Sequence record: OR352958.1
Direction: 5' to 3' (one strand)
Length of the DNA: 64,000 nucleotides
Source: Escherichia phage AV128
The position numbers and the translations under genes are program-made. Below are positions 160-63,009 of the stretch, one piece after another. Under the pieces are notes generated by a model. The model made no database searches. It was not told where the DNA came from and was given only the letters and a program-made list of their open reading frames with translations. How positions within the stretch are numbered: position 1 is the first letter of the stretch; every line of letters starts with the position of its first letter.

Positions 160-187
160 TTGCCTTTCTGAAATTCTGCATTATAAT
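160..187 (+). promoter_or_regulatory. sigma70-like promoter (TTGCCT-16-TATAAT)
   Basis: -35 and -10 hexamers with 16-bp spacer, about 25 bp upstream of the 214 start. Confidence 0.45.
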
Positions 188-213: not shown

Positions 214-429
214 ATGAAACTCATCGACCGCGCCATCAAATCCATTGATAATCACTCCACAGCGATTGCTTTCGTAATGGGATTTTGTTTCACTGCTGCG
301 TTTGGCGACGTTCAAACATTCAAGTCTGTCATCTTGTGCTGGTCCATCTGGTCACTTATTTCTCTGGTTTTGATTCTTCCGATGACGTGGCTTGTTCTTA
401 CTTGTCTTGAATCTCAAGGTGAAGACTGA
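214..429 (+). CDS. small membrane protein (two hydrophobic segments, acidic C-terminus)
   Basis: GGAGG RBS 4 nt upstream of ATG; hydrophobic stretches in translation. Confidence 0.5.
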   Translation: MKLIDRAIKSIDNHSTAIAFVMGFCFTAAFGDVQTFKSVILCWSIWSLISLVLILPMTWLVLTCLESQGED

Positions 430-650
430 TGAGACTATCAATCAAAGAGCGGGTAAAGCGACCCAAAAGGAGTGAGCCAAAGGCCAAATACACATGCATC
501 GGCGGACCTTTTGACGGTCAAGCGATGTGGCTTTCAAAATCTAATCCATCGACGGTTGAGTTCAGCCTTCATGGAATGCGCGGCAGATACCTGCTAAATA
601 GAGAAACAAGTGGCAGCACATTTGTGGAGTGGAAAGAAAATGGCAAATGA
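429..650 (+). CDS. hypothetical protein
   Basis: ORF start overlaps previous stop (ATGA); same-strand block. Confidence 0.4.
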   Translation: MRLSIKERVKRPKRSEPKAKYTCIGGPFDGQAMWLSKSNPSTVEFSLHGMRGRYLLNRETSGSTFVEWKENGK

Positions 651-873
651 ATTGACTTTAACAGTACCAAAAGAAGTGATAGACAAGGCATGCGCGGATT
701 CAGTGAAAGAATTGGCTGGAGTTCTTGGAATTGAAAATGAATTCAGCGTTCAGGTGCAATTCCTTAAGGATACTCTTCAAATCAAAGAGAACAAAGAAGC
801 TGGCGGCGGTGCGCCTTTAGCTTTGGCAATAATCTATGCGGGATTAATTTTGAAGTCTGGAGGTGAACTGTGA
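640..873 (+). CDS. hypothetical protein (C-terminal hydrophobic segment)
   Basis: Internal ATG at 640 chosen over GTG at 610; start uncertain. Confidence 0.4.
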   Translation: MANELTLTVPKEVIDKACADSVKELAGVLGIENEFSVQVQFLKDTLQIKENKEAGGGAPLALAIIYAGLILKSGGEL

Positions 874-1025
874 ATCGTTGGTGCAGTTGGAAGCTGAAAC
901 GTCTCGCCTGGGCCAATGCCGCCAATTCTGCTGGCTCAATCGCTGCTGGTGTTGGGTCGATATGGGATGGTGAAGGCCGTTGGGCCTCGCTGTGTGGCAC
1001 GCGCCTATTCTTTCGTGTAAAATAA
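870..1025 (+). CDS. possible small Trp-rich protein (GTG start)
   Basis: GGAGG 4 nt upstream of GTG; 51 codons; below ORF-track size cutoff. Confidence 0.2.
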   Translation: MNRWCSWKLKRLAWANAANSAGSIAAGVGSIWDGEGRWASLCGTRLFFRVK

Positions 1026-1068
1026 TATTCACCCTTCCCATATCGGGAAGGGAATTAAAGAGGTTATC

Positions 1069-1410
1069 ATGAACAATACTTTATCACAACTGCTAATCTG
1101 GACAATCGCTGCTATCATTGGCACCGTTATTATGATGTCAAGCGCAAAGGCTGAAACGGATATTTGCGCCAGACTTATTTCTGAGAATGGCGAGATTTAT
1201 TATGGAAACTCAAAAGGTGATTACATATCACCTGAAGTTTGCGCTCAGAAGAAAGCAGAAATGCAAAAGCAATATCATGAAGATCAATCTATATCTCAAG
1301 CCGCTCTGATTGAATTAAGTATATCAGCCATCATCTTTCTAATCGTTTTTATGCTCATTATTAAACCAAATAATGACAGCAACCGTCATATTCCTCTCAA
1401 AAGAAATTAA
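1069..1410 (+). CDS. exported membrane-anchored protein (signal peptide, C-terminal TM helix)
   Basis: N-terminal hydrophobic signal ending AKA-ET, two Cys in mature part, C-terminal TM; AGAGG RBS. Confidence 0.55.
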   Translation: MNNTLSQLLIWTIAAIIGTVIMMSSAKAETDICARLISENGEIYYGNSKGDYISPEVCAQKKAEMQKQYHEDQSISQAALIELSISAIIFLIVFMLIIKPNNDSNRHIPLKRN

Positions 1411-1448
1411 GGTTATAATACGGTTGTCGACAAAACGAGGACCGTAAA

Positions 1449-3446
1449 ATGCCAAGGCTAATATTCAAAAACAACTTTGAGGTCGCGCTGGCTCAACCAA
1501 CGACGACTTCAGACACCACAATCACAATTCGCTCAGGGTCAGGCTTTCCGACCTTGGGCGCAAACGAGCGTGTAGTGGCGACAATCGTCGACGCTGCAAC
1601 AGGCCTCCAATTTGAAATCGTCACAGTAACAGCCGTGGTTGGAAACGTCCTGACCGTGCAGCGTGCACAGGAAGGTACTGCAGCGCGTGCATGGAGCGTC
1701 GGAGATTTTTTATCCATAAGGGTGACGGCTGCCATATTGACAAGCACAGTAAGGAATTTTGGAGAATTACCTTCTGGAATAAACTTAAATGCCCTTACTG
1801 GTTCTTGGTTCGGTCAATACCAGCAGTCTTCTAATTCTGCGGCTTCGCAAGTTCTGAATTATCCTGTAGCCCAATCAGGCAGCCTTGAGGTTATTTGCTC
1901 GGCAAACAACTCTGGTGACCAATCTTGCACGCAAATATACAGCACGAATCCTGACAACAAGCAGTACAAAAGAACTTATAATTCAGAAACAAGCACATGG
2001 TCTACTTGGGCTAAAATATATAACTCTTCCGACGTGATTCCAGTCTCCAATGGAGGGACTGGTGTTTCAGACACAGGATCAATAAGAAGAGCAATACTGG
2101 TTCAAGGTGTAGTTTGTAACGATCAGACGGGGCCGCAGTCGTATAACAGCTATCGTTCACCCAACAGCACCTACACTTTCAAGGTTGACAACTCAGGCCA
2201 GGTGGCCTCAATCAATACGGGTACTGAAGAGGTTGTCCCGTTCGCCGTAAGCGCTGGCGGTACAGGGGCAACTAACGCTTACGACGCTCGCATCTCATTA
2301 GGTGTGGGAAGATTCAGCGAGCAAACCAACGAGACTAAAGTTCTAGCACCCAACTTTAGCACTTACATTTACGTGAACGACACCGACTGGGGATGCTTCA
2401 GCCCTACCGTTGGCGGTCGTATTGCGTTGAGTGTGGCGAGTGGTGGTACAGGGGCAACTAACGCTGCTCAAGCACGTACTAACCTCGGCATTGGTTCCGC
2501 AGCAACATTCAACACTGTACCGTTAGCTAACGGTGGTACAGGGGCAACCTCCGACGCTGCTGCTCGCGTCAACTTGAAGGTGGATAAGCTCGTTCAAAGT
2601 TCAACTGACACTAAACTTTTAGATGGTTCAGGAGAGCATACTTTCTTTATTACAGATGGGGATTGGGGGTATTTCAATAATTCTGACTCTTCTCGAATTG
2701 CTCTACCGGTAATTAGCGGAGGTACGGGAGGGAAAACCCCAGCAGAAGGTTCTGAAAACTTAGGGGCAATGCACTGTTGGTACGGTTCCTCAGTCTACTA
2801 CGGTGGTGGTGATTTACCAACTGGTATTGGATTCTACAGCGGGGACACGTCACCTTTTCCGGGAGGTAATGGGGCACCCTTCATATATGCGGAGATAATG
2901 ACTATTGCTGAAGGTGGTCGTGGAGGTAACTGGTCCCAAATAGGGTTCTCTACTATCACATATGAAGCCCCTCGCTACAGACAAAGGACTGCTGACCCTG
3001 CTTTAATTACTAACTGGAGAGATTTCTTGATTCGTGATCTCAACACTACAGTTGACAGTAACGGTTTCATTAAAATCGCATCCCCTATCGTGAAAATCAA
3101 AGGTGACGGTGGTGCTGAGTACAACGACGAGTCTGAAGGTTGTACAGTGGAACGCATCTCGAAAGGTGTCTACCGGATTTCAGGCTGCCTCGGCTTAAAC
3201 TCTGACGCATCGTGGGGCGGCACTGACGGCGGCTTCGAGATACCACTCGACCGAAACAAGCAACCTCGTATTTGGCTGGACTATAAAGTGAATGAAGATG
3301 GATCAATTGATATTTTCACGTATCACAGAACGCACAGCAACGCACCAGTATTTGCAAGGAATAACCTTGAAGGTTATGCAGACGGAGACCCAATAGACAT
3401 ACCAAAGGATGCATTTATCTCTGTGAGGGTGCAAATGCCAAAGTAA
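1449..3446 (+). CDS. tail fibre protein with phage tail-fibre repeats
   Basis: Four copies of xGGTGATNAxxARxNLG-type motif typical of the phage tail fibre repeat family; 665 aa. Confidence 0.8.
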   Translation: MPRLIFKNNFEVALAQPTTTSDTTITIRSGSGFPTLGANERVVATIVDAATGLQFEIVTVTAVVGNVLTVQRAQEGTAARAWSVGDFLSIRVTAAILTSTVRNFGELPSGINLNALTGSWFGQYQQSSNSAASQVLNYPVAQSGSLEVICSANNSGDQSCTQIYSTNPDNKQYKRTYNSETSTWSTWAKIYNSSDVIPVSNGGTGVSDTGSIRRAILVQGVVCNDQTGPQSYNSYRSPNSTYTFKVDNSGQVASINTGTEEVVPFAVSAGGTGATNAYDARISLGVGRFSEQTNETKVLAPNFSTYIYVNDTDWGCFSPTVGGRIALSVASGGTGATNAAQARTNLGIGSAATFNTVPLANGGTGATSDAAARVNLKVDKLVQSSTDTKLLDGSGEHTFFITDGDWGYFNNSDSSRIALPVISGGTGGKTPAEGSENLGAMHCWYGSSVYYGGGDLPTGIGFYSGDTSPFPGGNGAPFIYAEIMTIAEGGRGGNWSQIGFSTITYEAPRYRQRTADPALITNWRDFLIRDLNTTVDSNGFIKIASPIVKIKGDGGAEYNDESEGCTVERISKGVYRISGCLGLNSDASWGGTDGGFEIPLDRNKQPRIWLDYKVNEDGSIDIFTYHRTHSNAPVFARNNLEGYADGDPIDIPKDAFISVRVQMPK

Positions 3447-3453
3447 TTAAATC

Positions 3454-3480
3454 AAGGCGCTGAAAAGCGCCTTTACTTTA
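3454..3480 (+). terminator. Rho-independent terminator after tail fibre gene
   Basis: Stem aaggcgc/gcgcctt, loop tgaaaa, T-rich tail. Confidence 0.5.
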
Positions 3481-3499
3481 TGCTATATTAAGTTATACT
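3472..3499 (+). promoter_or_regulatory. sigma70-like promoter (TTTACT-16-TATACT)
   Basis: Hexamers and spacing read directly; upstream of 3530 gene. Confidence 0.4.
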
Positions 3500-3529
3500 C
3501 ATTATACGTTAACAAGTGAGGTGGATGAA

Positions 3530-3811
3530 ATGAAATTTGAAGACATCGACAAGGCCCAAAAAGCAAAGGCGCTGCCTAAATATGTCATCTGTGGTATTGA
3601 CCCTGAAGATAACCGCTTGGTTTTCTTAAAGCAAGTTGATAGCAATGAATCTGGCGACGCAGCTAATTGGTGCATCCCTTTGTTTGAGACAGCAGAAGAA
3701 GCCCAGAAGGTATTGTCAGAAAGCAATTTACCTAAACACTACAGTGTCGTTTCACAAGATGACATGGCAAAATTAGTGTTTAATTTTTATGGATATGGGA
3801 GAAGATTCTAA
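3530..3811 (+). CDS. hypothetical protein
   Basis: ATG at 3530 with GAGGTGG RBS; track start 3521 is GTG. Confidence 0.45.
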   Translation: MKFEDIDKAQKAKALPKYVICGIDPEDNRLVFLKQVDSNESGDAANWCIPLFETAEEAQKVLSESNLPKHYSVVSQDDMAKLVFNFYGYGRRF

Positions 3812-5760: not shown

Positions 5761-5916
5761 ATTTAACGTAATACCTGTTATGCGAACTAAGGAGCATCTC
5801 GAAGAAGATTATGCGACGACGAAGGGAAGGATAAAGGAGTTTTCGCGTAGGAGCGCACCGAGATAGGGACGAAGAAAAGCCGCGACTAAGCGCGGCCTAT
5901 TAGTAACGGAAGGGTA

Positions 5917-6207
5917 TTATAAGGAGACGATTTTAAAATAAGTCACTTCGCCGCCGAGTTGCGGTACAGCGATATATTCGCCGCCGATTTCGGTAATCGT
6001 ATAGACGAAGCCGTTAATCGTTACGCGGCAGGATACGATGTCCTCGTCGCGATACTTGTAAAGGTCGAGGAAGTTGATCGGCTCATAAATAGACTCGATA
6101 GTTGCGTCGACGTTAGAGAGATAAACGCTCTCTAAGGTTTCGCCAAATACGTTAGAGTTTTCGGAAGTCTCGACGCGAGCGGAACGGATAGCGGCTAAAG
6201 TAATCAT
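5917..6207 (-). CDS. small protein, paralog family member A
   Basis: AGGAG RBS; shares VY..NVD.TIE and NG...EIG motifs with 6493-6795 and 7020-7304 products. Confidence 0.55.
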   Translation of the reverse strand: MITLAAIRSARVETSENSNVFGETLESVYLSNVDATIESIYEPINFLDLYKYRDEDIVSCRVTINGFVYTITEIGGEYIAVPQLGGEVTYFKIVSL

Positions 6208-6274
6208 AATAATCTCCTAGTTGGTCGGGCGGGTAGCGACCTATTCGCTACCTCATCCCCTCTCGATATAAAAC

Positions 6275-6303
6275 ATTATAGTCTTAGTGTACGAAGAAGT
6301 AAA
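6275..6303 (-). promoter_or_regulatory. sigma70-like promoter (TTTACT-17-TATAAT) for paralog A
   Basis: Hexamers on minus strand; flanking sequence conserved with the other two paralog promoters. Confidence 0.5.
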
Positions 6304-6322
6304 GCACTTTTCGTTATTTTTT

Positions 6323-6475
6323 CTATTTATTTAAAGCGCGTCTCCCAAGTTCGACGACCCAAGCGGCGGCATCTTCCGCCTTATTAAATTCGTATAGATG
6401 CTTCTTATCTTCGAAGACGTAAAATAAAATACGTCCGAACTTATTAGCCTTCGCGCTTAACTCGATAGTTTTCAT
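6323..6475 (-). CDS. small hypothetical protein (50 aa)
   Basis: AAGGAG RBS 6 nt upstream; below ORF-track cutoff. Confidence 0.4.
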   Translation of the reverse strand: MKTIELSAKANKFGRILFYVFEDKKHLYEFNKAEDAAAWVVELGRRALNK

Positions 6476-6492
6476 CTTCTACTCCTTTTTCG

Positions 6493-6795
6493 TTATTTTG
6501 CGATAAAATATTTATAAGCCTTATCGCCTTCTACGTCGATATACTCGACGATAATTAACGCTTCGCCGCGCGGCGTAACCGTCTCGATAAGGGTAACGGC
6601 TTCGTCGTCGGTCTTCGCGAAGCGGATGGCACTACGTTCGGCGTACTTAATATCGTCGAAGGAAAGGCCGACGAAAGCGACCGCGCGGACCTTAATGATG
6701 GTGGATTCTAGTTCCGCGTTAACGGCGGCGATAAGAGAACGAACGGTTAAACGGTCTTCGTCGTAAGTAATGATAGAAGAGATTAAAGTGGTCAT
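6493..6795 (-). CDS. small protein, paralog family member B
   Basis: ATG at 6795 with GGGAG RBS; track ORF extends to 6852. Confidence 0.55.
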   Translation of the reverse strand: MTTLISSIITYDEDRLTVRSLIAAVNAELESTIIKVRAVAFVGLSFDDIKYAERSAIRFAKTDDEAVTLIETVTPRGEALIIVEYIDVEGDKAYKYFIAK

Positions 6796-6851
6796 AATAA
6801 AACTCCCGATGCTAGTAGAAGGAAGGGCCATCGCCCGTCTCGATATAAACA

Positions 6852-6879
6852 AGTATACGCGAGTGTACGAAGAAGTAAA
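6852..6879 (-). promoter_or_regulatory. sigma70-like promoter (TTTACT-16-TATACT) for paralog B
   Basis: Near-copy of the 6275-6303 promoter element. Confidence 0.5.
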
Positions 6880-6923
6880 GAAAAAAGATAAAATAATTTA
6901 TCTCATTTTTATCGAAAAAGTGC

Positions 6924-6951
6924 TTTACTTTTTTCTACACTATATTATAAT
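6924..6951 (+). promoter_or_regulatory. sigma70-like promoter (TTTACT-16-TATAAT) for paralog C
   Basis: GTGCTTTACTT...TATAAT conserved with the two minus-strand copies; divergent from 6852-6879. Confidence 0.5.
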
Positions 6952-7019
6952 GTACTCATATCGGGACGGGATGAGTTAACGAATAGGTCGTTAACGCCTC
7001 TCCCAACTAGGAGTTTAAA

Positions 7020-7304
7020 ATGGCTATTCTTAACGTTTCTTCTATTCGTAACGCTATCGTCGAGAACTACGGCGTAAAACAAATTTTATCCGAAGTCTAC
7101 GCCGCGAACGTAGACCAAACTATCGAGGCGGGTGGGGTAACGGTCGCCGAGGCGTTTAAACTTTACGCGGCGTTACCGGAATCGGACCGCGAAGCCTTCG
7201 AAGTAAACGTTAACGGATATTTCTTCGAAGCGGTCGAAATCGGTAATATCTTACTCGTTATGGGCGAAGAAGAATTTGAGACCTTCTCCCTCGTCGAAGC
7301 GTAA
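7020..7304 (+). CDS. small protein, paralog family member C
   Basis: AGGAG RBS; protein motifs shared with paralogs A and B. Confidence 0.55.
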   Translation: MAILNVSSIRNAIVENYGVKQILSEVYAANVDQTIEAGGVTVAEAFKLYAALPESDREAFEVNVNGYFFEAVEIGNILLVMGEEEFETFSLVEA

Positions 7305-7384
7305 GAGAGGATTTTTAGAGCGTCGTGCGCGGCGCTTTAATAAAATTCTTTCGCGCCTAGCGCCCTAACAAATAGGAGTTTATT

Positions 7385-8011
7385 ATGGTTAGCTTAAATC
7401 GCTTTTCTACTAGCGGCGACGTTATCGCAACTAAGACCGCCGACCTCGTTGCATTCTATAATGCAAATTCCGGCTCAAAACCGATTAAGAAGTTTGCGGA
7501 CCGCCGGACCGCCGAGACTCGCGTAATCGCGTTAATCGAGTCCTTAAACGCGCTCGATGAGCCGTCCAACGAGTCGCCCATCCCTGACGCGAAGCCGCGC
7601 GAGGAAGTGTCCAGCGATGTAAAAACGCATAAGGCGCGTGCGGTCGTTAAAAAGGCCGAGCCGACCCAGGAAGAACTCGATGCGATGAGCGATGAAGAGT
7701 ATGAAGCCTTCGTTAAGAGCGGCTTAAACGATAGTGCAAATTGCGTAGTGCAAAATGGAACTCCTTCCCATCGCCGTTCGAATAGCGAAGGTATTGCAAA
7801 AAGTTGGGATAACAAGGAAGTGGCGCAAAAGCGTCTCACCCGTAACGGCGTTATTGTCGAGGGTGTAGGAGAGTTCAAATCGGTCCGCGTAGCGTTTGCT
7901 GCGCTGGGCTTACCAGATAGCAAGCACATTCGCTTCCGCATGAAGCTTAAAGAAGCTGGACGCTTGAACTTCGAGTTCGGCAACAAGTCCTACACCTTCC
8001 AGATCATCTAA
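7385..8011 (+). CDS. hypothetical protein
   Basis: AGGAG RBS; contains two motif copies (7731, 7746) near its 3' end. Confidence 0.5.
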   Translation: MVSLNRFSTSGDVIATKTADLVAFYNANSGSKPIKKFADRRTAETRVIALIESLNALDEPSNESPIPDAKPREEVSSDVKTHKARAVVKKAEPTQEELDAMSDEEYEAFVKSGLNDSANCVVQNGTPSHRRSNSEGIAKSWDNKEVAQKRLTRNGVIVEGVGEFKSVRVAFAALGLPDSKHIRFRMKLKEAGRLNFEFGNKSYTFQII

Positions 8012-8017
8012 TCGAAT

Positions 8018-8041
8018 GGCGGCCCTTCGGGGTCGCTTTTC
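8018..8041 (+). terminator. Rho-independent terminator
   Basis: Stem gcggccc/gggtcgc with ttcg loop and TTTT tail, 7 nt after stop. Confidence 0.5.
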
Positions 8042-8061
8042 ATAGTGCAAATTGGTGGCTT

Positions 8062-8325
8062 ATGAACACGCTTATTCTCATCGCTACGTTGTCCATCGGA
8101 AGTGGTCGCGCCTTATCCCTTTATGACCATAGTGCAAATTGCGCTTACCCAACGCGCGTTGCGGCGATAGTTAATAGTGCAAATCGAATGCTATTTGAGA
8201 CTTGTTGGCGGGTAGATAACGAGAAAGGGCGCATCGTCTTAGGTTATAGTGCAAATCTGCTGGTGGAGTCGTTCGATTGGACGGCGGAAGGTCGTAAATT
8301 GTTACGTAAAGTGACTAAAAGATGA
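8062..8325 (+). CDS. doubtful ORF inside motif array
   Basis: GGTGG RBS and bracketing terminators, but three SAN tripeptides are translations of the DNA motif. Confidence 0.2.
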   Translation: MNTLILIATLSIGSGRALSLYDHSANCAYPTRVAAIVNSANRMLFETCWRVDNEKGRIVLGYSANLLVESFDWTAEGRKLLRKVTKR

Positions 8326-8384
8326 CTTATAATAATACACTTTCTAACGCGTTTATGGTTGTAGCCTTCCCCGTCGTATTACCG

Positions 8385-8426
8385 ATGGCCCTAGAAGTTG
8401 AGAAAATGTGTTCTAGGGCCATTTTA
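8385..8426 (+). terminator. strong Rho-independent terminator
   Basis: Perfect 12-bp stem atggccctagaa/ttctagggccat, 14-nt loop, T-rich tail. Confidence 0.6.
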
Positions 8427-8439
8427 TAGTGCAAATTGG

Positions 8440-8913
8440 CTAGTGGCGGGAGAATTGCTCACCCTCTTTGGCTGCCTCTCCAAAATCCTTGTAGAAATCG
8501 TCCATGGAACGGCCCATTTTACTATTGCCATTTTCATCAATCATCGTGATGCCGTAGATGATATTCAGTTCACGGATAGCATTAAGCTTGGCTGATGCCG
8601 CGACTTCTGGATCACGCACAAGCTTCACTAAATTGTGGATGGAACTCTTTACGCTCCACAATTCCTTCAATGGCATCTCTTCCATACGCTTTTTGTAGCG
8701 CATCTTGTAGTACGGATTGCGCTGCGTGCAGAGGATTCGCTGGCCAGTGTAGTTATCGGTCGCAACCTCCATGCCAAATACTAGTGCAAAAGCTGCGCGC
8801 ATGTCATGGCCCTGAATAACAAGGTCAATGAACTCATCGAATAAAGCCTGATTGTGCTCTGCAAATCGCGGGTCTTCAAAGTCCTCAGGCATCGCTACAT
8901 AATCTTGACTCAT
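8440..8913 (-). CDS. hypothetical protein (about 157 aa)
   Basis: Long ORF downstream of a strong minus-strand promoter; no Shine-Dalgarno; start 8913 or 8928. Confidence 0.45.
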   Translation of the reverse strand: MSQDYVAMPEDFEDPRFAEHNQALFDEFIDLVIQGHDMRAAFALVFGMEVATDNYTGQRILCTQRNPYYKMRYKKRMEEMPLKELWSVKSSIHNLVKLVRDPEVAASAKLNAIRELNIIYGITMIDENGNSKMGRSMDDFYKDFGEAAKEGEQFSRH

Positions 8914-8948
8914 AGTGCAAAATCCCATAGTGCAAATTAATAGTGTGA

Positions 8949-8977
8949 ATTATACAATGATTGAACATTATATTCAA
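8949..8977 (-). promoter_or_regulatory. sigma70-like promoter (TTGAAT-17-TATAAT)
   Basis: Near-consensus hexamers on minus strand about 35 bp upstream of the 8913 start. Confidence 0.5.
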
Positions 8978-9140
8978 GTGCAGATTGATGTTCAAATTGG
9001 CTGTAAACGTACACAAACCATAGTGCTGAATGAATATCGGACCGTGGTGCGTGGTGTACTGTTTGATACGTATAAAAGAAATCCATCCCTTTCGCCGCTT
9101 GTTATGCAAATCAATGACTTAGCCGCTGCTGGATGGTTGA

Positions 9141-9430
9141 AGCGTATCATGAAGTATCATCCGTATTGCCGCAAGTCTTTGTTTTTACTTATATCTTACG
9201 GATGATACGTATAAATATAAGTTTAGTATAAGTATGAGGATGTAGAAAAAAATTAATTTAAATTAATTCAAAATGGAGTTAATTGTTTTTTTTCAAAGTT
9301 GTATAAAGTATAGCGGCGACGCGTATCATCCGTATCATCCGTAAGATGTACCACTGAACCCAGTCGCGGCGCACCATAGAAGTGTGTGGAGTGAACTACG
9401 GATAGGTCCAAATCTTACGTCATTATACGC
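9141..9430 (+). repeat. iteron-flanked AT-rich element A
   Basis: TACGGATGATACG at 9197; AT-rich core 9241-9300; inverted CGTATCATCCGTATCATCCGTA at 9322; homologous to 61620-61900. Confidence 0.65.
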
Positions 9431-9539
9431 TTAAATTCTATGCGTAAGGTTAGCCAGCTAACTATATCTCCTTTTTAATTTCAAGCGGCAATCCCATAGA
9501 CGGCGCAGCCTACAGGCCCACACACCACGGTACACGCTC

Positions 9540-9720
9540 CAATTCCTAGTGATTCCCTCTACAATCCCACAGCACCACAGTACAATATTCTTCCAAATAC
9601 GCACACATATTCAAGACACACAAATCACGTCACAATCCTCGTTTCACACCATCCTCTAATAGATTTACACAAATCAATCGCTTTATCCGATAATAAAGCC
9701 TCACAAACAACAGGCAAACA
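9540..9720 (+). other. G-depleted CA-rich non-coding tract
   Basis: About 14 G in 180 nt on plus strand by hand count; CACA-type runs; no ORF. Confidence 0.6.
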
Positions 9721-10634: not shown

Positions 10635-11027
10635 TTAATCCTGTTTGTATTGAATAGTTAATTTGACGTAAGCCTTTCCGATTACTTTTGCGCGTTTATA
10701 TTCGATTGCGCGAAGGAGTTCGAAACGCATCCAAGTGGTGCGACAAGGTTGACCGTCGACAATCTCATAGATGATGCCGTCGCTATCATCACTTGTCGGG
10801 AATGCATAAATGCTTCCAGAAGAATTGACCATTTTGACAACGGTGTATTCTTCGCCTGCCGTTTTCATAAGGTCAATTTGCAAGTCACGATGGGCCAGTT
10901 CAGCAGCGATGTCAGACTTGCTGTAAAGTCCTTCGTGAGTCATGGCATAGATGTGGCGCGTATAATAGCCGCCCTCGTCGAGTTGCTCGATGTCACGTTG
11001 CCCGACTGCGTATTGTTTATCGGTCAT
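10635..11027 (-). CDS. hypothetical protein
   Basis: ORF in co-oriented early block. Confidence 0.4.
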   Translation of the reverse strand: MTDKQYAVGQRDIEQLDEGGYYTRHIYAMTHEGLYSKSDIAAELAHRDLQIDLMKTAGEEYTVVKMVNSSGSIYAFPTSDDSDGIIYEIVDGQPCRTTWMRFELLRAIEYKRAKVIGKAYVKLTIQYKQD

Positions 11028-11431
11028 AATTTCACCTTCTCATAAACGGTTGCCACTGCACCTTCGCCTTTGTTGATGTGCAGTTTAATGATCACGTGCA
11101 TAACGGCGCGTAAGGGGTTGTCATGCCAGCCGCTGCGCTTGAATGATGCGATGTCCATACTGTCCAACGCGACGTAAGCCGAGTAGTCACGGTTTGGTCT
11201 CTGGTTGCCGCAGTTGCGAACGACGCTGACATCATTGGCAAGCATCACGGGCCAAGCTGCTGTGATGTCGTTGCAATAGTCTCGCGGATAAGGGAAACGG
11301 CCTTGCGGGTCGACTAGCCCGTGCACATACTCGTTGATGATTGCATCGCTTAACTTGAACAGTGAGTCATCGCCGCCGTAAAGCTCGCCGCGCACCAGTT
11401 CTTCTAAACGTTCTTTATGTTGATTCATCAT
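11024..11431 (-). CDS. hypothetical protein
   Basis: ORF in co-oriented early block, stop-start overlap. Confidence 0.4.
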   Translation of the reverse strand: MMNQHKERLEELVRGELYGGDDSLFKLSDAIINEYVHGLVDPQGRFPYPRDYCNDITAAWPVMLANDVSVVRNCGNQRPNRDYSAYVALDSMDIASFKRSGWHDNPLRAVMHVIIKLHINKGEGAVATVYEKVKL

Positions 11432-11758
11432 TTATTCCTTGACTGGATAAAATTTAGGATTGTTCTTGTAGAATGCCTTGAGCCACGCCTTTGCTTCGGC
11501 AATGCTGCTGAACTCTTCCTTGGAGAGTCCGGTGCGGTCCTCGCCTGCGACCTTGAAATGAATGCGCACCTTGAGCCGAAGGTTGGTTGCTCTCGCGTAG
11601 TGGCCTTCATAGCCGTGATGGTCGAGGCTTACGATGGCGGCAAGCAGCTCGCAATCTTCTTTATCGGGATTACCGTTGTAACAAGTCGGCCAGCCGCGAC
11701 GTTGGAATGACCTGTATTGGCCTGTTGGCTCAGGGTCCACATACCATTTCAATTTCAT
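11432..11758 (-). CDS. hypothetical protein
   Basis: ORF in co-oriented early block. Confidence 0.4.
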   Translation of the reverse strand: MKLKWYVDPEPTGQYRSFQRRGWPTCYNGNPDKEDCELLAAIVSLDHHGYEGHYARATNLRLKVRIHFKVAGEDRTGLSKEEFSSIAEAKAWLKAFYKNNPKFYPVKE

Positions 11759-12660: not shown

Positions 12661-12969
12661 TCACTTCCCTCCAAACGTTGCAACACGGATTCCGCAACGT
12701 TCAAATGTCAACATAGGGTTAAGGCCGTCGGCACAAGTGATGAATAAATCATCAACAACAAGCTCATACCCTCCGACGTAAAGTATAAACTTATCATCGG
12801 TGTTATTTAACAAAAGGATTGCGGCGATGCCGCCTTGATTATTACTAAATCCTATTGCATTCTCTCCGCTGACTTGCGCCTCATTAAACTCTTTGATAGC
12901 ACCACAGTTCACGCCTTCTTGCAAAGCGTTCAAAATCTTTTTCTTCAACGCTTCGGTACTCATAATCAT
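12661..12969 (-). CDS. hypothetical protein
   Basis: ORF in co-oriented early block. Confidence 0.4.
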   Translation of the reverse strand: MIMSTEALKKKILNALQEGVNCGAIKEFNEAQVSGENAIGFSNNQGGIAAILLLNNTDDKFILYVGGYELVVDDLFITCADGLNPMLTFERCGIRVATFGGK

Positions 12970-13211
12970 TCCTCCTCAGAAAATATGGCGCACAATCCAT
13001 CTAATTTTTTATCCTCAGAGAGAAAGTAATAGAACAAGCCGCTTGAAGACTTCTCGATGTTCAAACAGCCAGCTCCTGGTGATAGCGGGTCCATATAGTA
13101 ATGCGAAACGCCATCATCACCCTCTACTGATTCCACTACATAGGTCTCACCAAAAGATGGCTTGAATTCAGAATTAATCTTGCTGTAAATACAAACTGTT
13201 CTAATACTCAT
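12966..13211 (-). CDS. hypothetical protein
   Basis: ORF in co-oriented early block. Confidence 0.4.
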   Translation of the reverse strand: MSIRTVCIYSKINSEFKPSFGETYVVESVEGDDGVSHYYMDPLSPGAGCLNIEKSSSGLFYYFLSEDKKLDGLCAIFSEEE

Positions 13212-13510
13212 AGCTCACCCTCTTTAAAAACAAAGCCGCTGATAACAGATTGATAGTAGGTCACGCCGCGCACCTCTACAGCCTTGCACCGATGAGCCTG
13301 ACCCTTGTATTCTATCCACCAGACTTCCATGTCAGGCAAGTTGTTGCGACGCGCCAACCAGCCGTGAAACAGCTTGTGTGTTTCGCCGACCTTAAAAGGT
13401 TTCAGCGTACCGTAAGAATCAACCTTGAATGCGCAGACAACATCTTTGCTGTCTTTGTGTACAGCGTCATGAAATAATCCGCTTCTGCCAAACCTTTCGT
13501 CGTAACTCAT
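13208..13510 (-). CDS. hypothetical protein
   Basis: ATG at 13510 with AGGAG RBS; track ORF extends to 13570. Confidence 0.4.
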   Translation of the reverse strand: MSYDERFGRSGLFHDAVHKDSKDVVCAFKVDSYGTLKPFKVGETHKLFHGWLARRNNLPDMEVWWIEYKGQAHRCKAVEVRGVTYYQSVISGFVFKEGEL

Positions 13511-30034: not shown

Positions 30035-30188
30035 TATGTGGATTCTATTAATATTGGCAATCGGTGGCACAACCATTTCGCCACATCCAATTGAGTTCAA
30101 ATCACAAAATGCTTGTGAAATTGCAAAGGAAAAGGTTGAACGTAATTCTTCAAGCTATACAAATGTAATTTGCGTATCAAAGGAATAA
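30035..30188 (+). CDS. small hydrophobic N-terminus protein (51 aa)
   Basis: ATG at 30035 with GGAG upstream; track ORF starts 30006. Confidence 0.3.
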
Positions 30189-30191
30189 CAT

Positions 30192-39936: not shown

Positions 39937-39962
39937 ACAAAGGCCCATATGGGCCTTTTTCT
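39934..39962. terminator. bidirectional Rho-independent terminator between convergent blocks
   Basis: Stem aggccc/gggcct with atat loop, A-run upstream and T-run downstream. Confidence 0.7.
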
Positions 39963-40606
39963 TACATAACTGCTAGTGCATCCTTGTAACGCTTCCGTCG
40001 CAAATCTCCATGGTTAGCCGTATTCGGCGCGGCCCCGTTAATCCGCTTCACAGTCGAATCAAATGCGCCAGCATCAGCAATTGGAATGCAACCGCTGTTC
40101 TTGAAGAACCATGCCGCGCTGTCAGCGATGTATTTCGGCTCAGTCAAAATGTCAGGGTTATTCAGTGCATCATACCCTGATTGCTTTGAATACTCTGCAT
40201 AGTTAGCCTTTCCAGTCAGCTGAATGGCACCACGGCCACGGTACTTCCAACCGTCTCCCGATGCTACCGAACCGTTGCCCATGCGGTTTGCATATGTATT
40301 ATTGGCGATTTCCATTGGTTTACGGGCAATCGACAATGCCAAGGAGTTGGGTGCACCGCCGAAACGACCGCTGGCGCTGTAACGGCTAGGCCATGTATTA
40401 GCAAGACCTTGAGCGGAATAATTCAAGTTTTCCACAAATGTCTTCAGACTGCCTGTTTCCACTCCTACGTTTGCAAGCAGCGCCGCGATGGCATTCTTGC
40501 TTTTGATTCCGTAGTGCTCACAAGCCTGCTTGAAAGGGTCCAACCACTTCTCTGCGACATCCATGCTGCATCCGGTCCCTTTAGATATTACGTTTGCATT
40601 AATCAT
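39962..40606 (-). CDS. endolysin, glycoside hydrolase family 19 (chitinase-like)
   Basis: YRGRGAIQLTGKANY and surrounding blocks typical of GH19 phage lysins; AAGGTGA RBS. Confidence 0.75.
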   Translation of the reverse strand: MINANVISKGTGCSMDVAEKWLDPFKQACEHYGIKSKNAIAALLANVGVETGSLKTFVENLNYSAQGLANTWPSRYSASGRFGGAPNSLALSIARKPMEIANNTYANRMGNGSVASGDGWKYRGRGAIQLTGKANYAEYSKQSGYDALNNPDILTEPKYIADSAAWFFKNSGCIPIADAGAFDSTVKRINGAAPNTANHGDLRRKRYKDALAVM

Positions 40607-40614
40607 AAATCACC

Positions 40615-42402
40615 TTATGCGCTTCTGTACCAGCCGTTCAAGACGACATATCGCGGCAGAGTTGAAACAGCCGTTGGAACGGACTGTCCTGCATTGCCAG
40701 TGTTACCGACCACATCGTGAGTGTGAGCGGGTAGGGTATAGCCATGGCTGTGATTGCCAGCATAATTTATATTCAACCCATGAGTGTGTGACCCAGAGGA
40801 TTGAATATTGTGGACGTGGTTGCCGTTAGTCGAGGTGTTGTATTTGTAGTTGTCCCAGTCGCCGCCCTTTCGACTACCGAAGTTGTTGTGCGTCCCATCA
40901 TAAACGCCGTACCGCGCATCGCTAGTATTGGCTTCACCCCAGCTGCTGTCATGGTGATGGTTGCCTGCCGTATCCATTCCATGCACGTGAGCACCGTTTT
41001 GGCTTGTATCACCTGTGTGGTTATGGTTGCCTGCGTCTCCAGTTGTATTGGACCATGGACCACTTTGTCGCGTGGTAATGTTCACGCTGTGATTGTGGAG
41101 AGGAAGCATTGCAGCGGTGAGAGTAACAGAGTCCGCGCCGCCAGTGGCAAGACCGTTTCGCGCCGCTCCAGATGTTCTGATAACCATGTTATCAGGCAGT
41201 CGTGTCCATACCTGACCGTAAGCGCCCAGTTTAGTATTTGGGTCTGTGCCGTTGGTCAGGAATCGAGTCTCACCTACTTCGAATACGTCACCCATAGTGA
41301 TCAACTTCGCAGCCAAAGCATCGAGTTGGCGCTTTGTAACAAACTGTTGCGGCTCAGTAGCGTCAACGCCGATTTGCGCCGCGCCAAACGCCTGAAGGAG
41401 ACGCCAAACAGTGCCGTCATAAATGATGGTGAATGGCAACAAGCCTACGATAGCGCCAGCTGGTAACTCGCCGCCGTCGAATCCAAGAACGGCAACTTTG
41501 TTTACACCAATGGTCACGGTGACAGGTCCGGTAGTAGTCACGTCATTGACGATGGTCAAACGACTACCCGCAGAAGGTGGCCATGAATACCCTGCTGGAA
41601 CGGTGAGGATTATATCTTGCGCGCCTTTACCAGATGCAAGGTTTGGAGTTCCGATTTGCACGTCTTGAACAGTGGCATTTTGAATCCAAGCACTCCAAGC
41701 ACCAGAAGTGTAAGAGCGAGTAAACAAATAGCCATTCATTGATGTATATTGCTGCAGCGCAAACGTTTGTGCATCGACCTGCCAAGCGCAAACCTGAAGG
41801 CGACCTGCAACCTTCGTCGCGCCAACCGCATTCGGAATATTAGAGCACAAAGCGGCAACGGCATCGGATTGAATGACGATAGTTGTGGAAGTCGTAATAT
41901 TATCGAAGTCCACAAAACTTGAAATCAATCCGCGAACGAAGTACGGGTTTTGCGCATCGCCGCCGGCAGGCATCGGAATGTATTTTCGCGCTTCGCTGGG
42001 CAGCGTTAATTCCTGCCAAGATTCCGTTTCTCCGTTAGCTGGTACGGCGCTTGTGTTGCCGTCGACCACGCTTTGAAAGATGCGCCACTCAGGCGCTGAA
42101 GGTGTTCCAGAGTTGCTGACAACAATGGCGTTTTTCGGGTATCCATCCGGCTTCAAGTCAGAAGAGAAATACTGTTGAGCGCCATGATCTTGAATAAACA
42201 TAAGGTTGTCTGTAATCAAATTCAGCAACCAGTTCATCGATTCGCGCTCAACAGCCTTCGCGGCGACGTTTCCGGCCTCCAGCGCAAGCGCATAGTCAGG
42301 GGTGTAGCCGCGCTGGAAGTTCACATAACCGCTTGGGCTTGCATCCGGCACCACGGATACATCACCGCTTTGCGCGAAAGGTCTGTTAATAAGTGTTGGC
42401 AT
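40615..42402 (-). CDS. tail fibre with His-x-His repeats in C-terminal domain
   Basis: C-terminal GNHNHTGD, GAHVHG, GNHHHD, GNHVHN, GSHTHG, GNHSHG, AHTHD repeats; ATG 42402 with GAGGAA RBS. Confidence 0.75.
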   Translation of the reverse strand: MPTLINRPFAQSGDVSVVPDASPSGYVNFQRGYTPDYALALEAGNVAAKAVERESMNWLLNLITDNLMFIQDHGAQQYFSSDLKPDGYPKNAIVVSNSGTPSAPEWRIFQSVVDGNTSAVPANGETESWQELTLPSEARKYIPMPAGGDAQNPYFVRGLISSFVDFDNITTSTTIVIQSDAVAALCSNIPNAVGATKVAGRLQVCAWQVDAQTFALQQYTSMNGYLFTRSYTSGAWSAWIQNATVQDVQIGTPNLASGKGAQDIILTVPAGYSWPPSAGSRLTIVNDVTTTGPVTVTIGVNKVAVLGFDGGELPAGAIVGLLPFTIIYDGTVWRLLQAFGAAQIGVDATEPQQFVTKRQLDALAAKLITMGDVFEVGETRFLTNGTDPNTKLGAYGQVWTRLPDNMVIRTSGAARNGLATGGADSVTLTAAMLPLHNHSVNITTRQSGPWSNTTGDAGNHNHTGDTSQNGAHVHGMDTAGNHHHDSSWGEANTSDARYGVYDGTHNNFGSRKGGDWDNYKYNTSTNGNHVHNIQSSGSHTHGLNINYAGNHSHGYTLPAHTHDVVGNTGNAGQSVPTAVSTLPRYVVLNGWYRSA

Positions 42403-62081: not shown

Positions 62082-63002
62082 TTAGTTCAACTTAATTGCG
62101 GTGATCTGTCCGTAAACGGTAGATGTCAATGCGTCTGTGCATTGATAGTTTAGATACACATTGCCAGGCGCGGCAAGAGTAATTATCTTTGTTGGAATAT
62201 TGCCGCCGAAACGACCTGCAGCCCGAATGCCAGCAGACATCGTGAATGCATCATCCGTAATATCTGAATTACTTGTTGACAATTTTACTGTAATTCCGGT
62301 ATTCGCTTGAACTCCTTCTGTTGCGACAGTCAACTGACTTGCTGTCACAAGCCATTTCCCTGCAGGCAGGTTTAATGTTGCCAGATTCACCAGAGTTGTC
62401 GGAGGATTGCTTACACTATTGCTTGTGTTTTGCACATTGCTTGCAGCAGCGTTAAGAACTCCAGAACCATCAATTGATAGTGTCGTTCCTACTTTTACGC
62501 CACCCAAGGTTGATGCTGATGCAATCGGTAATGAGTATTGAGTAACACTAATTGTACCGTCACCTGCAACACTTATGCCACTTCCTATCTTGACGCCGCC
62601 GAGAACAGAAGCCGTTGCCGCTGGTAACGTGTATTGGTTGCCGCTGGATTTGACTACCTTAACGGCGACAGCATTCTTGGACCCTCCAGACTCCATGCCT
62701 ATAATCACTGCTTCTCCAAAAGCGATGGTGATTGTAGATGCAGTTAAACCAGTCTGCACGTCTGTTATGTCCATTTTGGGAACTGAAAGTGTCAGATTCG
62801 GCTTGCTGGTAGAATCGCCATCATTACCGATCATAAAGAATTGGCCGACTGAATTGTATCCAGATGCCAATGGCGGACTCAATGGAACAATCAAATTTTT
62901 ATCGGATGTAAATTCTGAAACAATCGCCAAGCCGTTAGCATATACAGCAGGCAATACTGGCGTCTGTCCAGATAGAGGAAACGTGCTGATTGGTATCGTC
63001 AT
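62082..63002 (-). CDS. repeat-containing structural protein (fibre-like)
   Basis: Repeated ASxLGGVKxG...DGxxxV blocks; ATG 63002 with GAGGT RBS; track start is GTG. Confidence 0.45.
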   Translation of the reverse strand: MTIPISTFPLSGQTPVLPAVYANGLAIVSEFTSDKNLIVPLSPPLASGYNSVGQFFMIGNDGDSTSKPNLTLSVPKMDITDVQTGLTASTITIAFGEAVIIGMESGGSKNAVAVKVVKSSGNQYTLPAATASVLGGVKIGSGISVAGDGTISVTQYSLPIASASTLGGVKVGTTLSIDGSGVLNAAASNVQNTSNSVSNPPTTLVNLATLNLPAGKWLVTASQLTVATEGVQANTGITVKLSTSNSDITDDAFTMSAGIRAAGRFGGNIPTKIITLAAPGNVYLNYQCTDALTSTVYGQITAIKLN

Positions 63003-63009
63003 AATGACC

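Follow-up and report, generated by a model that had tools for sequence, protein, structure and literature searches.

Wifceviruses are described as carrying two tail fibres, a conserved one with His-x-His (HxH) repeats and a variable one with an N-terminal anchor (Humolli 2025; PMC11990801). Both this two-fibre set-up and the modular exchange of the variable fibre are already published, and neither is a discovery of the present work. Mass spectrometry of CsCl-purified virions has detected both fibre orthologues in two congeners, which carry another allele class of the variable fibre (Necel 2020). In vB_Eco4M-7, the variable-fibre orthologue gp27 gave 34 peptides and the top score, and the orthologue of the conserved fibre, gp63, gave 13 peptides; in ECML-117 both orthologues, gp24 and gp61, were detected. 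Wifceviruses depend on O-antigen, either O157 or O16. Without O-antigen, all four BASEL Wifceviruses that were tested lose infectivity completely (PMC11990801). The variable fibre of ManiWeber (Bas99, 777 aa) and of vB_Eco4M-7 (gp27) is T-shaped, with a Gp12-like RBD1, a T5-like RBD2 and an S74 self-cleaving chaperone.

A second group of described fibres is found in the Kuravirus podophages, where the gene for a proximal long tail fibre (SU10 gp12, phiEco32 gp14, EP335 gp12, AnnaHegner Bas87_0008) is followed by a distal fibre gene of the gp13/gp15 type. The proximal fibres are 925-aa proteins with an adaptor-binding N-terminus, and in SU10 the first 90 residues are the resolved part. The distal fibre is proposed to dock at aa 239-508 of phiEco32 gp14.

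In the present study we describe the two fibre loci of Escherichia phage AV128. The exchangeable fibre of this phage carries a borrowed outer part unlike that of every described relative, and this is new.

Two fibre loci in AV128

The window, the whole stretch of DNA that was analysed, comprises 64,000 nucleotides of record OR352958.1, or 64 of the ~68.3 kb of the genome. AV128 is an E. coli myophage and distant kin of the Pseudomonas PB1-like phages. It belongs to Wifcevirus, with ~94% nucleotide identity to WFH, Bas99 and Mansfield, and a whole-window comparison showed collinearity with Bas99 from end to end. The initial annotation had proposed two unrelated fibres at separate loci on opposite strands, and both were confirmed. 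Fibre 1, the variable lateral tail fibre (665 aa; positions 1449-3446, plus strand), is an ORF that matches tail-fibre PHROGs in profile searches and carries a PF25670 domain; fibre 2, the conserved baseplate tail fibre (595 aa; 40615-42402, minus strand), is an ORF recognised by homology. BLASTP found no significant similarity between the two proteins (best E 0.036). As the two-fibre design and modular exchange are in the literature, this observation on its own adds little.

When both loci were compared in relatives, fibre 2 was found to be conserved (96% amino acid identity to Bas99_0031) and fibre 1 to be variable beyond its anchor. Judged by locus and anchor, fibre 1 is a member of the orthologue group of Bas99_0109 and vB_Eco4M-7 gp27. 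Its gene occupies the same locus and strand as that of the T-shaped fibre, with the same flanks and regulatory signals. The locus is collinear with those of Bas99, Mansfield and the contigs L009 and L012, and has the flanking genes seen in Wifcevirus relatives, with the TerL-divergent promoter region on one flank and the terminal-repeat side of the genome on the other.

A distance of about 37 kb between fibre 1 and the main tail module had also been pointed out. This figure holds in window coordinates, but the other way round baseplate genes are ~25 kb away. The starts of the fibre 1 and TerL genes, which are transcribed divergently, are 1.45 kb apart, fibre 1 being at the head of the morphogenesis cluster, and the 37-kb separation is therefore partly an artefact of the window.

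Architecture and exchange of the variable fibre

Fibre 1 begins with an N-terminal virion-anchor domain, assigned by homology (aa 1-100; 1449-1748, plus strand, as are all fibre 1 domains). Identity over the anchor (aa 1-124/125) is 89-93%, with 28 Wifcevirus records among the matches listed, and ~93% to Bas99. Homologues of the anchor include the tail-fibre chain of 8jov (present 18 times in that entry and matched to Ralstonia podophage GP4) and, among the matches listed, fibre or spike N-termini of many phage types; no Pbunavirus records were among these. Sequence comparison with Bas99 delimits a first knob-like domain (aa 105-195; 1761-2033), which has a homologous counterpart in Bas99 with an identity of only ~45%.

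The shaft that follows (aa 200-440; 2046-2768) is built of repeated modules beginning GGTG(A)...AR.NLG. The GGTG repeats noticed earlier are real: five motifs, at aa 202, 270, 332, 362 and 424, compare with 0.1 expected in shuffled sequences, and at the DNA level three of the five are 25-nt repeats, at 2255, 2441 and 2531, that are nearly identical. Repeat copy number in the shaft differs between fibre 1 and the 636-aa allele of contig L009. A second knob domain (aa 444-528; 2778-3032), recognised by a fold match, resembles the knobs of R-pyocin fibres, phi812 RBP, T4 gp34 and Pa193 gp47, and is the segment that diverges most between close fibre 1 alleles.

The protein ends in a PF25670 (Phage_tail_C_2) domain (aa 532-665; 3042-3443), identified with the Pfam profile at an E-value of 1.9e-60 and 203 bits (cut-off 27), over profile positions 1-133 of 133. 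The conserved columns of PF25670 are common to fibre 1 and 61 homologues, 7z47_D matches aa 529-664 with 220 bits, and this end is highly conserved across many phage groups. Such conservation is unusually high for a receptor-binding tip. Solved structures resembling the PF25670 end were not found in the structure search. An AF2 monomer model of full-length fibre 1 was poor (mean pLDDT 67.5; anchor below 50), and Foldseek with this model gave weak, non-specific matches only and was set aside.

Nucleotide comparison with Bas99 ManiWeber delimits a swapped cassette at 1820-3440 (plus strand) without DNA match to that phage. Identity to Bas99 DNA (92-96%) ends at nt 1819 (aa 124) and returns at nt 3441, so that the left junction is intragenic and the right one is the stop codon. 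Genes and regulatory signals flanking the cassette are conserved relative to other members of the genus. At the protein level, fibre 1 has the anchor, a homologous first knob and the first GGTG motif in common with the T-shaped fibre, and similarity to the Bas99 fibre is absent past aa ~214. Fibre 1 lacks the Gp12-like RBD1, the T5-like RBD2 and the S74 chaperone of the T-shaped fibre and has the PF25670 end instead; PF13884 (S74 chaperone) gave no match in fibre 1, whereas other Wifcevirus fibres in the search do carry it.

The replaced part is Kuravirus-like. The cassette protein is 60-69% identical to Kuravirus podophage fibres, with nucleotide identity of up to 88% in patches, and the cassette is 81% identical at the nucleotide level to a fibre from an uncultured phage whose portal is of the SU10 type. 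The similarity aligns fibre 1 aa 197-664 with the C-terminal ~440 aa of the Kuravirus proximal fibres, among them SU10 gp12 and Bas87_0008 (aa 490-923), and spans the GGTG-repeat modules, the knob and the PF25670 end. The N-terminal ~487-490 aa of the Kuravirus proteins, including the adaptor-binding N-terminus, are missing from fibre 1. On these alignments the cassette is the distal, PF25670-ended branch of a Kuravirus-type proximal long tail fibre and not a T-shaped module. The suggestion of modular host-range exchange is thus well supported by the sharp junctions against Bas99, the conserved flanks and the Kuravirus-like nature of the replaced part. A megablast search of 5,426 complete E. 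coli genomes gave no match to the cassette and hence no prophage donor, and by GC content the cassette was not distinguishable from its surroundings.

The allele class is rare, being represented by one 10-member cluster and one E. coli assembly contig. The Wifcevirus contigs L012 (97% amino acid identity) and L009 (636 aa) carry the same class, both without a distal fibre gene. The four Wifcevirus loci returned by an IMG/VR scan all have the other allele class, and no record in the contig index contains the exact fibre 1 protein. The class is under purifying selection, with a dN/dS of 0.135 between fibre 1 and its L012 counterpart. Differences between these two are concentrated in aa 369-528, and PF25670 is nearly invariant. 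Fibre 1 of AV128 is a natural and precise domain swap that begins at aa 124 or ~200 and runs through to the stop codon. It joins a myophage anchor to the distal branch of a podophage fibre, and its junctions can be used for host-range engineering in a fast-replicating genus of E. coli phages.

Transcription signals around the fibre 1 gene

A promoter scan called a sigma-70-like site, TTGCCT-16-TATAAT, at 160-187 (plus strand), back to back with a TerL-directed promoter at 64-35 (minus strand). The fibre 1 gene lies in its own transcription unit, and the promoter at 160-187 is likely the start of a six-gene unit that ends with fibre 1. Five small ORFs without assigned function precede fibre 1 (214-1410, plus strand), and no terminator sets them apart from the fibre gene. 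The translations of two of these genes, 214-429 and 1069-1410, contain hydrophobic stretches. Pfam and PHROG searches with the ten small genes that flank fibre 1 returned no function. The orthologue of 214-429 (gp32, 7.8 kDa) was detected by mass spectrometry in purified vB_Eco4M-7 virions. The description of the neighbouring genes as early-type is unsupported; orthologues of two of them were found in CsCl-purified vB_Eco4M-7 virions. A division into early and late promoters by motif was discarded: the TTGCCT/TTTACT-N16-18-TATAAT/TATACT type precedes genes in every module, and timing of expression can therefore not be inferred from sequence. Separately regulated adsorption, the other reading offered in the initial annotation, has no support.

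The initial annotation had also given fibre 1 its own promoter and terminator. The case for the promoter is weak. An isolated, perfect TATAAT is present at 1414-1419 (plus strand) in the 38-bp gap before the ATG, and is kept in Mansfield and found as CTATAAT in Bas99, but it lacks an acceptable -35 element and the better promoter is the one at 160-187. The scan, which used -35/-10 hexamers with 16-18 nt spacing, called no promoter directly before fibre 1; the nearest plus-strand call upstream is a weak 9/12 match at 994-1023. For the terminator, folding and conservation point to a GC-rich terminator-like hairpin after the stop codon (3454-3473, plus strand), with a conserved stem of 8 bp, a dG of -13.6 kcal/mol and a z of -3, but its U-tract is poor, the tail reading UUUACUUUAUG. 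A promoter-like site of the next small-gene unit, TTTACT-16-TATACT, follows at 3472-3499 (plus strand) and is conserved in relatives, and the gene downstream of fibre 1 is a conserved 96-aa ORF.

The location of the gene outside the tail module, among small unannotated genes and in a unit headed by a sigma-70-like promoter, would agree with a product that is not part of the virion, such as a free protein that binds glycans and is expressed early with the host-takeover genes. We regard this as extremely improbable. Published mass spectrometry of CsCl-purified particles supports both proteins as virion fibres in congeners, the fibre 1 orthologue being top-scoring in vB_Eco4M-7 and detected in ECML-117 too; in addition, the N-terminal domain is homologous to the 8jov tail-fibre chain (18 copies) matched to GP4, and the unit abuts TerL.

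Candidate roles of the two fibres

The most probable explanation, and one in which we have reasonable confidence, is that fibre 2 is an inherited baseplate fibre and fibre 1 an added, self-contained lateral fibre that acts as a host-range cassette with a Kuravirus-type branch. The anchor (aa 1-124) would hold fibre 1 on the virion, presumably at the baseplate. After the first knob and the first GGTG motif, the rest of the protein would be exchangeable by recombination, the exchanged branch consisting of the GGTG-repeat shaft modules, the second knob and the PF25670 end. Since this branch would have been taken from beyond the Kuravirus dock for a second fibre, fibre 1 is expected to be self-contained and unbranched. 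It may make a first, reversible contact with a surface glycan, and its specificity may be set by the shaft and knob 2, which vary, and not by the conserved PF25670 end.

A different possibility, which we consider unlikely, is that fibre 1 is a 'headless' proximal scaffold without receptor binding of its own, in which PF25670 is structural or serves as a dock for a missing distal receptor-binding protein (RBP); host recognition would then fall to the conserved HxH fibre alone, or the partner would be supplied in trans. In favour of a scaffold, the closest characterised homologues carry a second fibre protein (SU10 gp12/gp13, phiEco32 gp14/gp15). Fibre 1, which sits on a contractile-tailed phage, is without one: tblastn detected no homologue of the distal fibre Bas87_0009 in the window, and besides the cassette there are no gaps of >540 bp relative to Bas99 across the window. 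This absence fits the self-contained fibre of the preferred explanation as well. In EP335, a GFP-gp12 fusion (66% identity to fibre 1 aa 197-664) bound none of the tested strains and the distal gp13 did bind, which counts against the preferred explanation too. The EP335 authors offered several technical explanations for this negative result, which weakens it as evidence for a scaffold. PF25670 is conserved across phage groups, unlike typical O-antigen-binding tips, but diversification between fibre 1 alleles is concentrated in knob 2, as expected of a specificity determinant, and the allele is intact, occurs in several samples and is under purifying selection.

The docking region itself also argues against a scaffold. 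Nearly all of aa 239-508 is absent from fibre 1, since this region lies almost entirely upstream of the acquired part, which starts at Kuravirus residue ~487-490. Furthermore, at least four other phage groups have PF25670-ended fibres that occur without a partner. Such a fibre is encoded by the final fibre gene of Dhillonvirus PNS1, Epseptimavirus TrudiRoth, lambdoid mEp237 and a T7-like contig, and the T7-like phage has no other fibre. Like fibre 1, these are one-protein lateral fibres with a group-specific anchor, a GGTG shaft, a knob and PF25670, although their anchors (phage_tail_N, T7 tail and T5 Ltf-type) differ from that of fibre 1. Because the published docking region is upstream and such stand-alone fibres exist, PF25670 as a dock for a distal fibre was rejected as the main reading. 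The mEp237 fibre is annotated as similar to that of HK97.

It is very unlikely, in our estimate, that the exchangeable fibre of this minority lineage has swapped a proven O-antigen-binding module for a conserved PF25670-ended branch without recognition of a variable receptor. If it had, O-antigen targeting may have been given up, with infection via the conserved HxH fibre alone; alternatively, the PF25670 end may be a general dock for a distal RBP from a co-infecting phage or a prophage. As the PF25670-ended branch is the only distal module here, AV128 provides a clean system to ask what this widespread branch does; for the homologue that was tested, EP335 gp12, no binding was detected.

Fibre 2 was correctly placed next to the endolysin, its gene lying directly upstream of a GH19-type endolysin gene (39962-40606, minus strand; profile match) that is the last of the late block. 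Upstream of fibre 2 is a gene for a 912-aa baseplate protein (42413-45151, minus strand), recognised by homology to wedge proteins, compared to ~500 aa for the Pbunavirus wedge homologue. Homology to Pa193 gp46 (wedge 2; E 7e-42) and to the 500-aa chain of 8env/8eon deposited as 'Triplex gp45' covers its first 185 aa, and the remaining ~725 aa gave no match. Fibre 2 aa 2-372 are homologous to Pbunavirus Pa193 gp47 (E 1.3e-31), so that in both phages the fibre has this N-terminal stretch of ~370 aa and its gene follows that of the wedge protein. By homology and gene order, fibre 2 is the conserved orthologue of the Pbunavirus baseplate fibre, probably inherited vertically, although it is shorter (595 aa versus 962 aa) and its HxH tip has no counterpart in gp47. 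The HxH repeats ascribed to fibre 2 proved genuine: eight motifs were counted in aa 436-562 (40717-41097, minus strand), against 0.59 expected and a maximum of five in 5000 shuffles. They form a predicted metal-binding needle tip, as in an AlphaFold-Multimer prediction for the Bas99 orthologue (PMC11990801). T4 gp37, with its HxH iron sites, likewise has HxH repeats in an elongated tip, and the PDB search returned no sequence match of T4 gp37 or gp12 to fibre 2.

The two fibres could also be alternative RBPs that open different host sets, like the dual tailspikes of SP6-like phages. Both are full-length with their own distal domains, virions of congeners are rich in both orthologues, and the BASEL authors call the relation between the two fibre sets unclear (PMC11990801). 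Such a role is distinctly unlikely, as a protein with ~96% conservation across phages from different O-types fits poorly with a determinant of host range, and as the four tested BASEL Wifceviruses were all non-infective without O-antigen. In the preferred explanation, the near invariance of fibre 2 in the genus points to a most likely role in a conserved step, be it binding of a conserved receptor or triggering of the baseplate. By analogy with the long and short fibres of T4, whose two-fibre and possibly two-step recognition logic resembles that of AV128, the two fibres may be used in sequence rather than as alternatives. Unlike in T4, the HxH tip of AV128 is on the conserved fibre, and the variable fibre is encoded away from the tail genes. 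The length of 595 aa for fibre 2 is counted from its ATG, and an upstream GTG at 42459 is also open.

Two unrelated fibres at separate loci

Two fibre genes are encoded in the window: fibre 1, a variable lateral tail fibre of 665 aa (ORF at 1449-3446, plus strand), and fibre 2, a conserved baseplate tail fibre of 595 aa (ORF at 40615-42402, minus strand). Fibre 1 matches many tail-fibre PHROGs and, at aa 532-665, the Pfam family PF25670 (Phage_tail_C_2). The motif GGTG(A)...AR.NLG occurs in it five times (0.1 expected from shuffling), and three of these copies double as 25-nt DNA repeats. In fibre 2, aa 436-562 contain eight HxH motifs (0.59 expected), and comparison of the two proteins revealed no significant similarity. 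The ORFs, motif counts, family matches and lack of mutual similarity bear out the initial annotation, which had proposed two unrelated fibres at separate loci on opposite strands.

This arrangement is real, but it is ordinary in the genus Wifcevirus and already published. Two sets of tail fibres have been described (Humolli et al. 2025, PMC11990801): a highly conserved set, encoded in the tail locus and displaying a T4-gp37-like tip with HxH motifs, and a variable, ‘T-shaped’ set with a conserved N-terminal attachment domain, a Gp12-like RBD1 and a T5-like RBD2 with an intramolecular chaperone. The O16 O-antigen was completely required by the isolates in that study, and the O157 antigen is needed by vB_Eco4M-7. 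Virion proteomics, suggested earlier as a check on both fibres, is available for congeners and favours two virion fibres: mass spectrometry of CsCl-purified vB_Eco4M-7 and ECML-117 detected orthologues of both, with the variable fibre orthologue as the top-scoring protein (Necel et al. 2020). The modest novelty is a rare, undescribed architecture of the variable fibre, in which a Wifcevirus anchor is followed by a distal branch of Kuravirus type that terminates in PF25670, without a partner protein.

Fibre 2 is flanked by a GH19 endolysin gene (39962-40606) and a gene for a 912-aa baseplate wedge homologue (42413-45151, minus strand), which lies upstream, and its orthologue in Bas99 (phage ManiWeber) is 96% identical. 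Over its first 372 aa, fibre 2 shows homology to gp47, the tail fibre of Pbunavirus Pa193, and the first 185 aa of the wedge homologue match Pa193 gp46; fibre 2 is thus an inherited baseplate fibre. The same 185 aa match the 500-aa chain ‘Triplex gp45’ (8env/8eon). Whereas the Pbunavirus wedge protein (Pa193 gp46, ‘Triplex gp45’) is ∼500 aa long, the protein here has 912 aa and the alignment is confined to the first 185; the Wifcevirus-specific ∼725 aa are a candidate docking site for the extra fibre. A further gene at 62082-63071 (minus strand), in the head module, encodes a ∼306-329-aa protein annotated as ‘tail fiber protein’ in Bas99 (Bas99_0006), with weak matches to head-fibre and tail PHROGs. 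We regard vB_Eco4M-7 gp38, which is among the most abundant virion proteins (73% coverage), as its orthologue; the protein is possibly a head fibre or a decoration of the head.

Mosaic structure of the variable fibre

The first 6 kb of the window are 90-95% identical to Wifcevirus WFH, ManiWeber/Bas99, Mansfield, ECML-117, FEC19 and vB_Eco4M-7, with a hole over most of the fibre 1 gene. DNA identity to Bas99 ends at nt 1819 (aa 124) and returns at nt 3441, the stop codon; conservation extends to the gap before the gene, the hairpin after it and the promoter that follows. Of the two explanations first suggested, modular host-range exchange and a possible separate regulation of adsorption, the former is right, and the exchange can now be mapped to the nucleotide. 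At the protein level, aa 1-124 are ∼93% identical to the Bas99 fibre; aa 125-214, which comprise a knob-like domain and the first GGTG motif, are homologous to it at only ∼45% identity, and beyond aa 214 no similarity to the Bas99 fibre was found. The anchor (aa 1-100) is also N-terminal in fibres and spikes of very different phages, including the tail-fibre chain of entry 8jov, matched to Ralstonia podophage GP4 and present there in 18 copies. Residues 197-664 show 60-69% identity to the C-terminal ∼440 aa of the Kuravirus proximal long tail fibre (KBNP1711, EP335, AnnaHegner Bas87_0008 aa 490-923, and SU10 gp12 = 7z47_D). DNA identity to KBNP1711 reaches 88% at nt 2532-3109, and nt 2088-3404 share 81% identity with a fibre gene from an uncultured phage whose portal is of the SU10 type.

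A search of 5.8 billion proteins was used to survey alleles. Wifcevirus fibres on ∼68-kb contigs mostly carry PF13884 (S74 chaperone domain) and have lengths of 765-792 aa, and three forms combined the Wifcevirus anchor with PF25670. The first (97% identity) is a 10-member cluster and lies on a Wifcevirus fragment, L012; the second has both the anchor and PF25670 ends; the third was mis-started, its true ORF (L009:5875-7785, 636 aa) being part of a 67,963-bp contig from an E. coli assembly. The PF25670 allele was found in none of 39 Wifcevirus records in the phage collection and at none of four IMG/VR loci. Between the window and L012, dN/dS is 0.135. Changes cluster in aa 369-528 (knob 2: dN 0.075, dS 0.53), and PF25670 is nearly invariant (dN 0.003); it is also the most conserved stretch among 62 fibres of many phage groups. 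With moderate confidence, we assign specificity to the region of the variable shaft and knob 2, not to PF25670. That fibre 1 binds a receptor is something we infer, because the only functional test of its module type was negative: GFP-gp12 of EP335 bound no strain, and gp13 bound O157 and O26.

The proximal fibre of Kuraviruses and of some T5-like phages bears a second, distal fibre protein, and it is this protein that forms the T-shaped RBP. Several results argue that this phage needs no such partner. No homologue of the distal protein was found within the 64-kb window, and besides the fibre cassette (nt 1820-3440) there are no gaps relative to Bas99 larger than 540 bp. The docking region has been placed at aa 239-508 of phiEco32 gp14 (Golomidova et al.), and the acquired part starts at about residue 487-490 of the Kuravirus fibre, so almost all of that region is absent from fibre 1. 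Moreover, the last fibre gene is PF25670-ended in Dhillonvirus PNS1, Epseptimavirus TrudiRoth, lambdoid mEp237 and a T7-like contig; in the last of these, a T7-tail N-terminus is joined to PF25670. On these grounds, we interpret fibre 1 as complete and unbranched. In TrudiRoth (L007), the lateral fibre ending in PF25670 is immediately followed by a 35-aa ORF at 6410-6517, annotated as ‘tail fiber protein’. This ORF resembles the vestige of a distal fibre gene that has been lost, which would be consistent with repeated switching between the branched and the unbranched state.

Genomic position, regulation and flanking genes

The reverse complement of Bas99 is collinear with the whole window, window positions 1 and 64000 corresponding to Bas99 68355 and 4485. 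The window therefore lacks about 4.4 kb of the genome, in which TerL, two small genes and the beginning of the portal gene are located. Because the minus-strand TerL gene begins just to the left of position 1, fibre 1 is separated by 1.45 kb from the head of the morphogenesis cluster and is divergently transcribed. It is outside the tail locus, as first described, and on the TerL/morphogenesis side the baseplate genes are ∼25 kb away. The 3,673-bp direct terminal repeat of Mansfield, a PhageTerm prediction, maps to about 5812-9485, a region that contains the gene for the small terminase (8440-8928, minus strand). This would put the physical genome ends near 9.4-9.7 kb, and we infer that the fibre 1 block is situated between TerL and the left terminus of the packaged DNA.

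A promoter and a terminator were originally assigned to fibre 1. The 38-bp gap before its ATG holds a conserved TATAAT without a -35 box, and the strongest promoter-like site of the unit is at 160-187 (TTGCCT-16-TATAAT), with no convincing terminator between it and the fibre gene. The hairpin after the stop codon is conserved, but its T-tract is weak; next comes a further promoter-like site (3472-3499). Because promoters of this type are present in every module, they do not reveal whether the unit is expressed early or late. Detection of orthologues of the 214-429 and 3521-3811 products in purified virions argues against an ‘early-type’ block of small genes.

The gene at 214-429 (plus strand), beside the TerL-divergent promoter, encodes a 71-aa protein with two long hydrophobic stretches in its translation; its orthologues in CsCl-purified virions are vB_Eco4M-7 gp32 (7.8 kDa, 55% coverage) and ECML-117 gp30. 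Since no holin is annotated in Bas99, the product is possibly a holin or a virion-associated membrane protein. The gene at 3521-3811 (plus strand), which immediately follows fibre 1, encodes a 96-aa protein with no family match. Its presumed orthologue is vB_Eco4M-7 gp26 (10.5 kDa, 62% coverage in purified virions), and the 96-aa protein could be a fibre accessory protein; the close relative L012 lacks the gene and has a 69-aa gene after the fibre instead.

Segments without a Bas99 DNA match, other than the cassette, are 9348-9694, 10639-10868, 11031-11443, 12967-13504 and 30036-30191. These are small accessory-gene replacements in the minus-strand small-gene region, with one near the DNA polymerase gene, and the first breaks the similarity near the putative genome ends. 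Within the Mansfield-repeat counterpart, an inverted repeat (6205-6269 and 6958-7022) is accompanied by promoter-like sites at 6303-6275 (minus), 6879-6852 (minus) and 6924-6951 (plus). The divergent genes at 5917-6207 (minus) and 7020-7304 (plus) are each preceded by the same promoter and a ∼70-nt leader, in copies ∼78% matched that both fall within this counterpart. The leader contains a stem-loop, GGTAGCGAATAGGTCGCTACC and GTTAACGAATAGGTCGTTAAC, and may be a shared regulatory leader.
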